Assembly (NCBI GenBank): GCA_963718895.1
Contig: CAVRAG010000008.1
Location: forward strand, 96,001-160,000
Source of the DNA: an uncultured Nitrososphaerota archaeon
Lineage (GTDB): Archaea > Thermoproteota > Nitrososphaeria > Nitrososphaerales > Gagatemarchaeaceae
Reading direction: 5' to 3'
DNA: 64,000 bases
Below, one piece after another: positions 27,892-35,213 of this stretch. The notes under the pieces are model-generated. The model was given only the letters and a program-made list of their open reading frames with translations. It did not search any database and had not been told where the DNA came from. The stretch's first letter is position 1, and every line of letters starts with the position of its first letter. The translations under genes and the position numbers were made by a program.

Positions 27892-27911
27892 TATGTTCAT
27901 AATTCGTATAA
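27892..27911 (+). repeat. attL: core TATGTTCAT (27892-27900) plus inner arm AATTCGTATAA
   Basis: Core identical to 35205-35213; CATAATTCGTATAA is the exact reverse complement of TTATACGAATTATG at the right end. Confidence 0.85.
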
Positions 27912-28012
27912 GATACGTCTACGTTTACGCTACTAGGCGTTTGAATTACGCCAGTGATGTTCTGCGTCGAATAGGCCTCCATCTGCCCGATGCCTTGTGT
28001 TCCGGTGGTCAT
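27892..28012 (-). CDS. Putative N-terminal fragment (intN) of the split integrase
   Basis: ATG at 28012 with TTTATTA box 31 nt upstream; across the reconstructed attP it joins the ORF starting at 35190 in frame. Confidence 0.6.
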
Positions 28013-28178
28013 GTCTGACAGGAGTATGAACGTTGGCGGGGCTAATAAATTTCAAATCATTGATTCCGATAGCCGCCGGGGTAACGATAGCGAAGCGATT
28101 GTAGGTGGCCCGATAGTAGTAGATTTTAGACCTGTGGCCGCGCTCTATAGCGTAGCGCTCATCGCCCCGACTTGACGG

Positions 28179-28278
28179 GGCGGCGGCCACTGTGCGGTTA
28201 GACAGCCTTAGCTGATAGGGCCGCCGAAATGGAATGATAGGCGGAGCGGAAGCGGAGCCGGTAGTAGGCGGCGAAGTG
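28179..28278 (+). repeat. ~100-bp repeat, copy 1
   Basis: Hand alignment to 28823-28921: 20 mismatches and 1 gap over 100 columns. Confidence 0.85.
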
Positions 28279-28410
28279 GTTGGGCCTTACCAGTGTCTCT
28301 CTGATGTATCTGGTATGTGTTCTTGTAATCGCGATAGAGGTATTGAGTGCGGTAGGCCATGTGTCCCGCCTCGTTTGAAGGTTGATTCCGGTCGGAGAAA
28401 CTACTGAGAT

Positions 28411-28773
28411 TTACTCTATTATTCTCGGTGGTTCGTATTTTCCCCTTGTCAAGCGCTCGATATGACGGTTTACGCGGAGCGAGATGTACGCTATGACTGC
28501 CAAGAAAGGTAAATAGAGAACGAAGGCGGCAATGCTGGAGTAAATCCAGATGGTCTGCGTGTTGTAGATGATGGTGTATCCGGTATTGAGTCCGGAGACA
28601 TAGTTCGCGGTCAATATGAAAATGAGAAACGACGAGAAGAGACCAGCGGTGGCAATACCCATCATCGTTTTTCTAAGGCCGTCGATTTTCGCTAAAACAG
28701 CTTGAATCTTGGCGTATTCCTGCGCGGTCAGTGGGTGGTCTGGAACGGCGGCGGGAGGCGGTCCTTGGCTCAA
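28411..28773 (-). CDS. Orphan two-TM membrane protein (element cargo)
   Basis: Two hydrophobic helices; TTAAATA box about 30 nt upstream on the minus strand. Confidence 0.65.
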   Translation of the reverse strand: MSQGPPPAAVPDHPLTAQEYAKIQAVLAKIDGLRKTMMGIATAGLFSSFLIFILTANYVSGLNTGYTIIYNTQTIWIYSSIAAFVLYLPFLAVIAYISLRVNRHIERLTRGKYEPPRIIE

Positions 28774-28822
28774 GGGTTAACGATTCTGGAGGCCCTGGTT
28801 CCATATTTAACTCTGGTTTATC

Positions 28823-28921
28823 GGCGTCAGCGACTGTGTGGTTGGACAGTCTTAGCAGATAGTGCTGCCGGTTTGAACGGTAGGCAGTGCGGGAGCGGAG
28901 CCGGTGATAGGCGGCGTAGTG
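28823..28921 (+). repeat. ~100-bp repeat, copy 2
   Basis: Aligns with copy 1; contains stems GACTGT/ACAGTC and CTGCC/GGCAG. Confidence 0.85.
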
Positions 28922-33506: not shown

Positions 33507-33694
33507 GTCGACGTACTTCTGGACGAGAACCTCAACTTGATCGCGTGATTCTTTCTTGGAGAACGTGAGGTATCAACGGTTAGGTAGGCTTCGTTGGGGA
33601 TTTATCCATTGAGTAATAGCCTACGGTCAGCTGCGGGGACGGAATCGGGAACCGGTCGTGGCGTTGTTAGTGGCGTAGGCAAGGAGGGAAATCT

Positions 33695-33916
33695 TCAGTA
33701 GCTGTGTTCCCAGCGATGTCCGTAGAAGTCCTTCTTTCCACGGAACTCCTTGTAGCATACCTGACAGACGAAGCGGGCAGACTTTGGATGGCTTTCACAA
33801 CCCGAAATGAAGATCTTACCTCCGGGATATGCAGTGACCTCACAACCGCAGAGTTCCACCTTCCTCTTTCCTAGACCTCTGAATTTCCATTCGGGCTTGG
33901 ACTTGGCCTGAAGCAA
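33695..33916 (-). CDS. Small C2H2 zinc-finger protein
   Basis: CGC...C..H plus FVCQVCYKEF...FYGHRWEH. Confidence 0.55.
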   Translation of the reverse strand: MLQAKSKPEWKFRGLGKRKVELCGCEVTAYPGGKIFISGCESHPKSARFVCQVCYKEFRGKKDFYGHRWEHSY

Positions 33917-34048
33917 CAGTGGTTGGGCTGCATAGCTGTGATTTAAGCTGTGTATCGAAGCGTGCCATTGAGAGTGAGGGGAGCAGAACCGAAGACTCCT
34001 GACGAAAAGAGTGCGAGAAAAACCAAGAGGTTTGTCTCGTAGTGCGGA

Positions 34049-34073
34049 GCGCGGGGGGCGAAGCCCACCGCGC
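34049..34073 (+). other. GC hairpin with GAA triloop (possible single-strand origin element or terminator)
   Basis: GCGCGG-G-GGGC-GAA-GCCC-A-CCGCGC. Confidence 0.45.
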
Positions 34074-34085
34074 AGCTATCTTGGC

Positions 34086-35204
34086 TCAGTGAACTAGTTG
34101 GTCTGTAAGTAGTTTGGTGAGTTTCATTATCTGGTCTTTGAGTTCTGCGTTCTCTCTCTTCAGGTCGTCGAGGTCGCTTGCTTGCCTGAACGGTTCTCTT
34201 GGTTCGTCGGGTTCTATTGGACTCGCTATGGAAAGGTAGGGCGCAAGGTATCTGTCATATTCTTTGACGAGTTCGGAGTAGTCCTCTAGGGTGTATGTGC
34301 TTGCATTGTGTCCGTGGGTCTGTCTGTCGCCCATGAGGTAATCCCAAGAGTTCACGGGCATCGCCGTCTTCCCTGCGATGGTATGGAATCTCTTCCGAAG
34401 GTAGTGGCTTGTCAACCGCACTCCAAATCTGGACAGGGCGAGCTTCGTGATGTCTCGCCACAGAGTCTCATGGTTGGGGAACGGTGAAGACTTGTTGGCT
34501 GATTCACAGTAACGCCTTAACCAGTCTGCAAAGGTTCTGGGAATGATGCAAATGTGATCGTTTCTGGCCTTGGTCTGGGCGGCTTTGACATGGAGAAGGG
34601 TGTATCGCTCGTCGAAGTCCTCCCACTGGGTTGTAGCTGACGTTGGAGCAAAGGGAAGTAACCCGTTCGCCGGCGTAGGCCTGAAAGTCCATGATAGCAT
34701 GGTGCTCATGGTCGAAGCATGTCGTAGATTGCCTTGAGAATCCCGGGGCTAATCTTGCGGGTCGAATGAGTGAAGGTCGTGTTAAACGATGCTTGGAGAG
34801 GACAGCGGTTCGCCTTGAATATGCCTTTCACTGTCGCTCCGTATATCGTGTGGCTTGTCGTCGGTTTCTCGGAAACGAAGAGCAGGAGCTTGTTATCGGT
34901 CGTGAAGTCATCGTCCTTGTGCTCTCTGCGAGTCTGAGCAATGAGGTCTGATACGGCGGTCGGGGTGATTGGTCTTCCGATAAAGTCGAGAAGTATCTAA
35001 TGGACGCTAGACTGTGGCGGCGGGTGAACCGAGATAGGAAGCCGTTGTTTCGCTTCTTCTGGGCCACGGTTGCGAAGTAGACCTCCATGGCCTTGTCCAG
35101 AGCCAGAATGCAGTGAAGCCTGTGGGACTCTTGGTCTCGCTTTGACCCGCTTGGGCGCTTCCGGGTCTGCTTTACGCCTCTACGCTCCACGGCGTTATAC
35201 GAAT
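34086..35204 (-). CDS. Tyrosine recombinase/integrase (intC part), with about three frameshifts
   Basis: Across frames: AYAGERVTSL (Arg), QTKAR (Lys), SHYLRKRF (HxxR), YLMGD...STY (Tyr). Confidence 0.8.
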
Positions 35205-35213
35205 TATGTTCAT
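35195..35213 (+). repeat. attR: inner arm TTATACGAAT plus core TATGTTCAT (35205-35213)
   Basis: Direct repeat of the left core; inverted repeat of the left inner arm. Confidence 0.85.

Follow-up and report, generated by a model that had tools for sequence, protein, structure and literature searches.

A small plasmid-like element in the proS promoter region of a soil Nitrososphaerales archaeon that probably splits its own integrase gene

Positions 27892-35213 of the 64-kb stretch of DNA analysed here (the window) appear to hold a small plasmid-like element that integrated site-specifically in the promoter region of proS and, in doing so, split its own integrase gene; we give this reading a probability of roughly 80%. 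The host is a soil archaeon of the Nitrososphaerales (Thaumarchaeota). The element is 7313 bp long, with one core counted, and the genome carries a single copy.

The repeat search placed the direct repeat TATGTTCAT at 27892-27900 (attL core, plus strand, also recovered by family comparison) and at 35205-35213 (attR core, plus strand). As the first-pass annotation had reported, the two copies form a pair; neither strand of the window held a further copy, the expected count was 0.05, and two copies occurred in 0 of 100 shuffles. By itself the 9-bp repeat is weak evidence, because 9-mers repeated about 7 kb apart arise commonly by chance, and chance repeats of 10-12 nt were many. We observed, however, that the base composition changed exactly at the copies, with a GC fraction of 0.46-0.57 between them versus 0.61-0.65 outside; the element is a low-GC island of about 50% in surroundings of 63%. 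Directly 3' of the left core is AATTCGTATA (27901-27910, plus strand), a putative integrase binding half-site, and directly 5' of the right core is its exact reverse complement, TATACGAATT (35195-35204, plus strand). These 10-nt inverted arms are perfect, as are both cores, and since the arms abut the cores the circle junction would read arm-core-arm. The earlier claim of an integrated element is therefore supported by the GC step, by the inverted arms and by an att architecture shared with relatives. The one public run found (share 0.06) had contigs with the integrated right junction only, and for this strain we saw neither a circle nor an attP junction nor an unoccupied attB in the reads.

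The target is the promoter region of the host gene for prolyl-tRNA synthetase, proS (35242-36687, plus strand), recognised as an ORF and by comparison with relatives. The sequence TTCATTAA (35209-35216, plus strand) lies half inside the core and 25 nt before the proS ATG at 35242, and the pattern TTC[AT]T[AT]AA was kept there in all nine relatives inspected. Its conservation suggests that TTCATTAA is the probable proS TATA box. Four genomes of the same genus were informative about the site. G002 has GCGCCACGGCACCGAC-TATGTTCAT-AAAGAG directly before proS; in G007, where the element is absent, an S9 peptidase gene stands directly before TTCATTAACCCTG-proS; and G005 has GGATT-ATGTTCAT-TAACC in host-like DNA. 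In G001 the same int gene is reduced to about 175 nt beside proS, with unrelated DNA of low GC after it, and is clearly a relic at this proS site. Strand exchange would take place inside the 8-9 bp core with the matching sequence in the proS TATA region, and the uninterrupted host attB would then read CACAGAC-TATGTTCAT-TAACCCTG. Because the core is duplicated on integration, the proS coding sequence stays whole and keeps its TATA-like box. A tRNA search with ARAGORN was negative for the window, in agreement with the non-tRNA target proposed at first reading, and for nine related loci. Elements of the family were bordered by promoter-like sequence, by a start codon or by the 3' end of a protein-coding gene; if the family is a separate one, as considered below, its core reproduces promoter boxes, start regions or gene ends of the host.

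When the ends of the element are joined, the frame from the ATG at 28012 continues into the integrase, reading ...DVSYTNYEHNSYNAVERRGVKQ..., just as the first-pass annotation had it. The left-end piece, int(N) (27893-28012, minus strand; from the ORF list and the junction reading), comprises this ATG and about 40 codons into the core, and in the integrated state its ORF continues into host DNA up to a stop at 27755. The TTTATTA box noted earlier was found at 28043-28049 on the minus strand (TAATAAA on the plus strand), 31 nt from the A of ATG 28012. Together with the GAAA that precedes it we take it to be an archaeal TATA/BRE-like promoter, judging from what is generally known of archaeal promoters, and it may well act as the working promoter. 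In the circle, attP would be TATACGAATT-ATGTTCAT-AATTCGTATA, situated within the integrase reading frame, in its 5' part, with the TTTATTA promoter and ATG 28012 some 40 codons upstream of the core. Because the att site has this position, integration, presumably by recombination inside the core, would strand the promoter, the start codon and int(N), about 37-40 codons long, at the left end, with the remainder of int at the opposite end. With int separated from promoter and start, the element once integrated would be unable to make the full-length integrase, following the "suicidal" logic of the SSV type. Excision would presumably depend on integrase provided in trans or by a rare circle.

The right-hand piece, int(C) (34086-35205, minus strand), was resolved by translation and family alignment into four frame segments, all on the minus strand. 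Segment 1 (35205 to about 34995) holds the N-terminal part with a basic KQTRKR stretch and a DKAMEVYF motif, segment 2 (34990-34715) the core-binding domain, segment 3 (34712-34645) the active-site Arg in AYAGER, and segment 4 (34709-34086) the Lys, HxxR, His and Tyr followed by a C-terminal coiled coil. The "integrase ORF at 35190" has only 120 codons (34828-35190), a point that the first-pass annotation had missed. The rest of the integrase occupies three further segments, and therefore the active-site Arg and the K/HxxR/H/Y residues lie outside the frame that the join restores. Two of the earlier claims thus stand in part. Promoter, ATG and about 37-40 codons are at the left end as described, but the catalytic part is in frames other than the joined one. 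Likewise, the att site does lie inside the int frame, but with three more frame breaks as assembled the gene in the circle is not intact.

Given the three int frame breaks, this copy may be dead. The breaks are at about 34993, 34714 and 34640, with another in the restriction-modification (R-M) gene at about 32760. The most probable alternative is an element that integrated as proposed and has since decayed, immobile even with its ends rejoined, to which we give a little less than an even chance. It accounts for the three int frame shifts and the one in the R-M gene, none of which coincides with a long homopolymer, and three breaks in about 1.2 kb exceed the host rate; the G001 genome, of the same genus, has a clear int relic at this very site. 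On the other hand, the conserved host genes of the window contain 11 distinct frame switches in about 41 kb, where the frames of G007 are continuous, and indel errors of assembly would suffice. With eleven similar breaks in host genes, decay and assembly error look the same. Moreover, the aligned int segments have no premature stop apart from the frame breaks and keep all catalytic residues, and cores and arms are flawless.

Relatives of the element bear on the split itself. In MAGs and metagenomes of Nitrososphaerales the same core-plus-arms architecture allowed us to mark the ends of eight related elements (L060, L122, L124, L127, L138, L118, L064 and L066). The strict att scan gave 8 observed matches versus a mean of 1.8 per 40 loci in shuffled controls; for at least seven other integrase loci the far end was not located. 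Elements of the family are as small as 4.7-9.5 kb, and their cores of 7-8 nt correspond to the 8 nt ATGTTCAT within the core of the window, next to arms with the consensus AATC[CA]GTT. In the window and in seven of the eight other elements the int frame read through the circle junction without a stop, extended upstream for 26-185 codons beyond the far core and contained an ATG, while the other two junction frames were closed after 2-9 codons and had none. Five elements (L124, L138, L118, L060 and L064) offered no ATG, GTG or TTG for 45 to 100 codons after the core. At a further locus, L037, the stop codon of a host rpl7ae-like gene abuts the core and no start follows it. The exception was L066, in which the frame upstream of the core is closed and an ATG occurs 3 codons after the core. 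Homologue support for the join, on which the first-pass annotation had laid weight, was thus obtained, both from the open frames and from the five elements lacking a start. Its contrary case, homologues that begin in the right-hand part, was encountered in L066, the other seven having an open left-end frame with an ATG.

Counted to the nearest or sole ATG, the N-terminal extensions span just 8-51 codons and differ from one another across the family; being so short and dissimilar, they possibly have no function beyond providing start and promoter. From the start of L066 after the core it follows that what is split off is promoter and start rather than a conserved N-terminal domain. A split of the coding sequence is not universal in the family, because of L066, of the GTG at 35190 in the window and of the called starts of the database homologues P0007, P0009 and P0011. 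These same observations allow the alternative that the integrase coding sequence is not split at all. The gene would then start at GTG 35190, which in the window follows the core by 6 codons, with the att site in its leader or promoter and the left-end ORF a chance frame, and integration would at most swap the promoter. L066, closed upstream of its core and with its ATG at +3, fits this account, as do the lack of conservation among the extensions and the called starts of P0007, P0009 and P0011, with M 3-8 residues before the KPTR stretch. Gene callers, however, pick the first start after the host stop, and calls on integrated copies are therefore no guide to the true start. Of the three junction frames, the int frame alone is open and has an ATG in eight of the nine delimited elements, five lack any candidate start codon over at least 45 codons past the core, and the left-end ATG has its TTTATTA box at the usual distance; we consider an unsplit integrase unlikely. 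Least probable by far is that the 9-bp repeat is a coincidence and the island was gained otherwise, without site-specific recombination at these points, since nine-base repeats a few kb apart are indeed common by chance (10-12 nt ones were seen) but perfect inverted arms and a GC step at both cores, the same layout at the ends of eight related elements relative to the shuffle control, and an uninterrupted site in relatives all argue against it.

We return to the main reading and to the enzyme that would integrate the element. By its modelled fold and its active-site residues the integrase is a tyrosine recombinase. The family is rare: a search of 1.84 billion proteins gave 102 representatives at E<=0.001, and of 201 genomes sampled from the order 17 had it. 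Its members follow the catalytic order Arg...Lys...HxxR...His/Trp...Tyr of tyrosine recombinases. An alignment of 21 members showed Lys 47, Arg 105 (in the SHYLRKRF box), Gly 133 (in a GH pair) and Tyr 139 to be invariant, and the arginine of GER to be nearly so; in the window this is the Arg of AYAGER, at about 34660 in a separate frame. The AlphaFold2 model of the full-length member P0011 (pLDDT 90.3, 29-sequence alignment) has the two-domain fold, a helical core-binding domain and a catalytic domain. A Foldseek search with it against the PDB returned 16 matches at E<=0.001, all to Xer, lambda Int, Cre or Tn1549 Int; archaeal XerA, XerH, lambda Int and Cre were matched at E 5e-6 to 1e-3, and the SSV1 catalytic domain (3vcf) ranked 46th at E 0.013. 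Pfam family PF00589 was detected in 6 of the 21 members (best E 5.4e-7) and PF16795, at E<=0.1, in none of them. In a six-frame search of the 201 genomes PF16795 occurred in 41, and was absent from G000 and from all 26 places matching this integrase. Most of the PF16795 matches came from one family of the order, f15 (22 of 40 genomes), and none of the 40 sampled genomes of f15 had the integrase described here.

One of the other genes encodes a Rep protein of 408 aa (29394-30620, plus strand), probably a rolling-circle initiator of HUH type by its motifs and alignment. It has an N-terminal Zn-binding module, FTFTxPSD, HxH, four conserved Tyr residues and a C-terminal CxxC. Among 11 aligned sequences FTFTxPSD was conserved, and H191 and H193 in PHVH and Y272, Y274, Y287 and Y297 were invariant, which gives HUH motif II and downstream candidate catalytic tyrosines conserved across homologues. 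All Pfam matches were under the cut-offs (Rep_1 in 1 of 11 sequences at E 0.012; Zn_Tnp_IS91 in 8 of 11, best E 0.0019), Rep_1 clusters made up 27 of 30 Atlas neighbours, just under the threshold for recognition, and a Foldseek search of the PDB with the model (pLDDT 74.8) gave nothing better than E 0.038. Against BFVD we obtained 9 fold matches at E<=0.001, with TM scores of only 0.24-0.41; the named ones among the matches listed were replication initiators of microviruses and a vibrio phage. The HUH assignment made earlier consequently has moderate support, from the motifs, the Rep_1 neighbours and the BFVD matches, and falls below curated cut-offs and lacks a PDB fold match. Homologues of Rep were found in 22 loci that also hold the integrase, and Rep would replicate the circle by a rolling-circle mechanism. 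A direct repeat of 47 nt with 83% identity (28232-28278, plus strand, and 28875-28921; repeat search) flanks the ORF of a predicted 120-aa membrane protein with no family assignment (28411-28773, minus strand); it has a 36-nt match in the G001 relic and may be a candidate origin or iteron.

A 62-aa Zn-ribbon-like protein (28965-29153, minus strand) and a 57-aa putative ribbon-helix-helix (RHH, CopG-like) protein (29123-29296, minus strand) are encoded side by side, as they are in L124, L125 and L071, where homologues of the latter are 68-85% identical. For the CopG assignment, RHH families appeared only as leads, and there was no Pfam match at E<=0.1. The R-M system named in the first-pass annotation was borne out by Pfam. 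It is a Type IIG (Eco57I/MmeI-like) enzyme, carried by the element as cargo, in two ORFs on the minus strand (30884-33506) that overlap by 23 nt in different frames, so that its domains are present on two frames as assembled: the nuclease N-terminus (32751-33506; HSDR_N 9.1e-12) and the methylase with a TaqI_C specificity domain (30884-32773; Eco57I 2.2e-36, N6_Mtase 9.8e-27, TaqI_C 5.2e-9, MmeI_Mtase 2.9e-7). A 73-aa protein (33695-33916, minus strand) weakly matched C2H2-type zinc fingers.

Self-cutting integrases have been regarded as the speciality of one superfamily, known chiefly from hyperthermophilic archaea and tied to tRNA targets, and they raise the question of how elements leave the chromosome and persist. 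We tentatively suggest, at somewhat under even odds, a second and independently evolved self-splitting family: Xer-like, outside PF16795, and carried in mesophilic soil Thaumarchaeota by small rolling-circle plasmids with an 8-bp core between 10-nt dyad arms. If so, the strategy would be more general and would operate in abundant soil archaea. The family would preserve stages in the migration of an att site into an integrase gene (the core in frame in some members, just upstream of the start codon in at least one, L066), and selection would favour parting int from promoter and start rather than splitting a protein domain. It would also give a compact system, with an att site small enough for oligonucleotide synthesis, for asking whether int(C) alone excises, how an 8-bp core with dyad arms selects promoters, and whether integration alters expression of a neighbouring essential gene, here proS. 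To our knowledge the phylum Thaumarchaeota has no genetic system, and the element adds to it a plasmid family and a candidate integration tool.

The SSV-type ("type I", "suicidal") integrases are described from Sulfolobales fuselloviruses and from the Thermococcales plasmids pTN3 and pT26-2 (PMC8371274, PMC7253208). A 2021 review gives PF16795 (Phage_integr_3) as the common domain of the SSV, pTN3-like and pT26-2-like families (PMC8371274), and in the literature "suicidal" integrases are traced to the PF16795 superfamily as their one origin. As there described, the systems share a tyrosine recombinase on small archaeal plasmids or viruses and an attP inside the int frame, so that integration parts int(N) and the promoter from int(C) and the catalytic domain; the position of attP was the same in the window and in seven of the eight other elements and different in L066. 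The family reported here, in contrast, has no PF16795 match, and its int(N) is very short and variable. Att sites of the SSV type are given as 40-50 bp, identical to part of a tRNA gene (PMC8371274, PMC7253208), whereas here 7-9 bp are shared (9 bp in the window, 7-8 bp in relatives), with 10-nt dyad arms and no tRNA identity. SSV-type targets, in the same descriptions, are tRNA genes and the hosts hyperthermophiles; here integration is at promoters, at start regions or at the 3' ends of protein-coding genes, and the hosts are Nitrososphaerales from soil, peat and sediment metagenome records.

Within Thaumarchaeota, 8-bp att sites and targets that are intergenic or 3' of genes were already known (PMC6563490). 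The same source describes NitEve-E3, a cryptic integrated element with a split "SSV1-like" integrase (PMC6563490). It resembles our element in phylum, in the consequence of integration and in being a cryptic integrated element, not a virus; it differs in carrying an MCM helicase and not the kind of Rep seen here. The first-pass annotation had known of no description of such a combination in this lineage, but by this account a split integrase had been reported once in a thaumarchaeon (PMC6563490). NitAQ6f-E2, a cryptic integrated thaumarchaeal element with an SNJ1-like rolling-circle initiator, is likewise small and thought to replicate by rolling circle (PMC6563490). Its Rep is given there as a homologue of SNJ1 RepA, whereas the nearest leads here are Rep_1 and microvirus initiators, and the source's description of it reports no split integrase (PMC6563490). 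Archaeal XerA (PDB 4a8e, 5hxy) gave the best fold matches to the integrase, at E 5e-6 to 1e-4 with both domains aligned, but in sequence the two can hardly be linked (E 0.38 against the family profile). XerA acts as a resolvase at chromosomal dif sites, while the family described here has in addition a basic stretch at the N-terminus and a coiled coil at the C-terminus.

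The first-pass annotation placed the 9-nt core TATGTTCAT at 27892-27900 and 35205-35213; both copies are there, and the window has no third. Such a repeat carries little weight by itself, since comparable searches turned up abundant chance repeats of 10-12 nt. We regard the two copies as the ends of an insertion because of a step in GC content, inverted arms and an in-frame join. The GC content is 0.61-0.65 outside and falls to 0.46-0.57 between the cores, with the step coinciding exactly with both copies. The left core is followed by the arm AATTCGTATA, and the exact reverse complement of AATTCGTATA directly precedes the right core. 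The rejoined ends would read TATACGAATT-ATGTTCAT-AATTCGTATA, an arm-core-arm order that is the dyad layout of the core site of a tyrosine recombinase. Joining the left-end piece int(N), from ATG 28012, to the frame of the right-end integrase remainder int(C) gave the very peptide quoted in the first-pass annotation, and the TTTATTA box is indeed located 31 nt upstream of this ATG.

As integrated, int(N) is an ORF that spans 27755-28012 on the minus strand (85 codons in total), crosses the core into host DNA and reads antisense to the 3' end of a gene for an ICMT/PEMT-family membrane methyltransferase (27265-27849), situated between the element and an S9 peptidase gene. An active TTTATTA promoter would therefore cause antisense transcription into the ICMT gene.

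For related loci with integrase homologues, we searched for the far ends of the elements in several ways. The strict scan required an exact 8-nt core, a 10-nt arm beside int, and the reverse complement of the arm before a downstream core with at most two mismatches. Among 40 loci it gave 8 matches, compared to a mean of 1.8 per 40 loci in shuffled downstream DNA. Five matches with a common arm consensus, located where the int open frame begins, were accepted: L122 (9148 bp), L124 (5399 bp), L127 (9500 bp), L138 (4686 bp) and L118 (6816 bp). The matches in L123, L128 and L129, of which the last two have the same coordinates and the same matches, were dropped, with arms unlike the consensus and sites upstream of the open frame; these three rejections are consistent with the shuffle expectation of 1.8. 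Another scan delimited L060 (5418 bp, core ATGGACCT, genome G080), while a core-8 match in L069 and core-7 matches in L059, L065, L066, L069, L070 and L072 were discarded as GC-rich or as having no arm consensus. The relaxed scan covered only GC-boundary regions, picked by eye, of nine loci, with false positives at about 0.25 per locus by our own estimate. It added L064 (6357 bp) and L066 (7729 bp), accepted because they were located on the junction motif T[TC]AAGATAAT, which had been spotted independently beforehand. Its matches in L059, L065 and L069 were dropped, and it found none in L068, L061, L062 and L067. For at least seven integrase loci the far end was not located by these scans. A search of 15 loci for exact direct repeats of at least 10 nt shared by the 5' region of int and the DNA downstream stayed at the chance level, and a search with a fixed arm pattern was informative for L060 alone.

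The arm consensus across elements is AATC[CA]GTT (the window's arm is AATTCGTA), and GC steps match the element ends wherever inspected. At L138 14073-14100 and L118 6825-6850 (core ATGGGCAT) we also observed an arm-like AATCCGTTAC / AATGCACTAC on the host side of the far junction; either the attB itself seems to include a half-site, or a remnant of an older element is present there.

The comparison with homologues that the first-pass annotation had called for could thus be made on nine delimited elements. Seven of the eight others agree with the window in that the int frame continues open across the junction, for 26-185 codons upstream of the far core, with an ATG in this stretch. Both alternative frames run into a stop after 2-9 codons and lack an ATG; this closure is partly forced by TAA triplets in the conserved arm, and it is also seen in the window and L060, whose arms are different. 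On the other side of the junction, no ATG, GTG or TTG was found within 45-100 codons after the core in L124, L138, L118, L060 and L064, and therefore the integrated int(C) of these five is without any start. In L037, another integrase locus, the stop of an rpl7ae-like host gene abuts the core, and no start comes after the core. L066 departs from this pattern: its frame is already closed 6 codons ahead of the core, which is followed 3 codons later by an ATG. We conclude from this comparison that the family has its att site among the opening few dozen codons of int or immediately ahead of them, and that integration strips the promoter and the start from the gene. The finding is real, and independent relatives support the reading of the integrase as split by its own integration.

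The N-terminal pieces are short and mutually dissimilar, except for a stretch common to L122, L138 and L118 that may reflect conservation at the DNA level beside the arm. In L060 (contig G080:C1), a 72-codon acidic ORF at about 5860-6100 in the int orientation has its own AT-rich upstream region, runs in the direction of int(N) and ends about 90 nt before the far core; int(N) may be co-transcribed with it there.

The window's integrase gene also has further interruptions, which the first-pass annotation did not mention. The ORF from 35190 has only 120 codons, and comparison with homologues showed that the integrase continues in other frames, through segments from 35205 to about 34995, 34990-34715, 34712-34645 (with the AYAGER arginine) and 34709-34086 (with the lysine, HxxR, histidine and tyrosine). 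All three switches, at about 34993, 34714 and 34640, are shifts of the single-base type, none of them in a long homopolymer, and the R-M gene likewise lies in two overlapping frames, with its break at about 32760. As a host control, we compared open frames from 80 kb of the relative G007 with the window. The roughly 41 kb of alignable host DNA had 11 distinct frame switches, some between segments 89-94% identical, so frame breaks are common in this assembly. They are situated at 17530, 20111, 20308, 25240, 42925, 45422, 46011, 50981, 54190, 55618 and 59947; the last splits a 489-aa frame with 91% and 94% identity to G007 on either side. The assembly seems to contain many single-base indels, which would also depress its completeness estimate. 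The integrase gene, with three breaks in 1.2 kb, exceeds the host rate. Both decay and assembly error fit its frame breaks, and the window's copy may be defective. We also observed proS in 3-4 frame segments in other few-contig genomes of the genus (L026, G010:C3; L024, G021:C2), which suggests similar indel errors in those assemblies.

The right end of the element faces proS, which starts at ATG 35242. All nine relatives inspected have TTC[AT]T[AT]AA at an equal distance before a conserved ATGTCCGAG start. Judged by position, this motif probably serves as TATA box for a leaderless proS message, and the element core overlaps it. Three relatives of the same genus have the site without the element. 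In the one-contig genome G007, the S9 peptidase gene runs directly to TTCATTAACCCTG-proS. In G002 the site reads ...GCGCCACGGCACCGAC-TATGTTCAT-AAAGAG...proS, with a left half like the window's left flank, and the contig ends 93 nt before the core. In G005, GGATT-ATGTTCAT-TAACC lies within host-like DNA. The empty site CACAGAC-TATGTTCAT-TAACCCTG reconstructed in the first-pass annotation is thus a mosaic of sequences present in relatives. Another genome of the genus, G001 (locus L003, G001:C44, 1-975), shares the right junction beside proS exactly and retains about 175 nt of this int, about 92% identical. Beyond this remnant follows unrelated DNA of 41-51% GC, with a 36-nt match to a 47-nt repeat of the window's element. 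L003 is a relic at this attB, left by a relative of the element that has been truncated or rearranged. The S9 peptidase gene of G007 and G010 is immediately upstream of proS, and the ICMT protein had no match among the 12 relative loci searched; its gene may be lineage-specific or an older insertion at the same hotspot. The related contigs are from MAGs labelled Nitrososphaerales, Nitrososphaerota or Thaumarchaeota.

As to the targets in the family, no tRNA gene was found in the window or in nine related loci. In the window, and likewise in L122 and L124 (core ATAAATAT), the core occupies a TATA-like box about 25-40 nt ahead of a host gene; in L060 it falls on the start codon of a pilin-like gene, and in L127 and L037 it lies at the 3' end of a protein gene.

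The element is present as a single copy in its genome. In the sole public run found, which has a share of 0.06 of the words, contigs cover 27526-27793 and 35126-35444 identically, with two short unlike pieces in addition. These contigs show only the integrated right junction and no joint, attP or empty attB; they are uninformative on excision either way. Terminal overlaps marking a free circle were found in none of 69 metagenome or genome loci.

Among the other genes of the element, the 408-aa Rep had 13 homologues in 5.8 billion clustered proteins, none with a Pfam domain. FTFTxPSD is conserved in it, together with an invariant HxH and several tyrosines that are likewise invariant, and each end has Zn-binding cysteines. 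Matches to Pfam were all below the cut-off, the language-model neighbours were Rep_1 clusters, the named matches listed from BFVD were microvirus and vibrio-phage replication proteins, and the PDB gave no fold match. A role as rolling-circle initiator has moderate support. Rep homologues of 21-54% identity occur in 22 integrase-holding loci, a count in which some contigs appear twice; of the nine delimited elements, four contain one (those of the window, L060, L127 and L066). An RHH-like gene with a Zn-ribbon neighbour recurs in L124, L125 and L071, the RHH assignment being only a lead. The domains of the R-M enzyme are clear (Eco57I, N6_Mtase, TaqI_C, HSDR_N). A direct repeat of 47 nt (28232-28278 and 28875-28921, 83% identity, G-rich on the plus strand) brackets a 120-aa membrane-protein ORF and may be the origin or iteron region of the element.

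Scanned in full by HMMER with the 207-aa C-terminal ORF, 1.84 billion proteins yielded only 102 representatives of the integrase family at E<=0.001; of 201 genomes sampled from the order, 17 have a match. Members of full length run to about 350-400 residues, and the catalytic residues are conserved. The model of one of them, P0011 (pLDDT 90.3), matches XerA, XerH, lambda Int, Cre and Tn1549 Int in fold, and the SSV1 catalytic domain comes only at rank 46 among its fold matches. By sequence the family is remote. PF00589 matches 6 of 21 members; against PDB sequences the family profile found XerA at E 0.38, a coiled-coil artefact and nothing else; PHROGs gave a single weak integrase match (phrog_216, E 0.0011); and no relative was found among IMG/VR viral contigs.

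In the portions of the literature covered, neither this integrase family nor its arm-core-arm site nor the link between it and this Rep was found described. The same holds there for split integrases with targets other than tRNA genes; the supplementary tables of PMC6563490 and PMC7253208 may hold members of this family or such targets. As far as the covered parts of these sources go, split ('suicidal') integrases are known from the SSV, pTN3-like and pT26-2-like families, which have PF16795 in common, att sites of 40-50 bp and tRNA gene targets, and come mostly from hyperthermophiles (PMC8371274, PMC7253208). For Thaumarchaeota, the covered text reports one element, NitEve-E3, with a split SSV1-like integrase, as well as att sites down to 8 bp; of 68 elements with defined sites, 15 are intergenic and 14 at 3' ends of protein genes (PMC6563490). 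Self-splitting is therefore, by these reports, already known, as are short att sites in the phylum. PF16795, the SSV-type integrase domain, matches none of 21 members of the window's family. It is present in 41 of the 201 genomes, never where this integrase has a match, and is absent from G000. The window's family thus shares the self-splitting strategy with the SSV-type superfamily but differs from it in the sequence test for membership, and the element is best filed as a known self-splitting strategy run by a family that stands outside the SSV-type sequence criterion.
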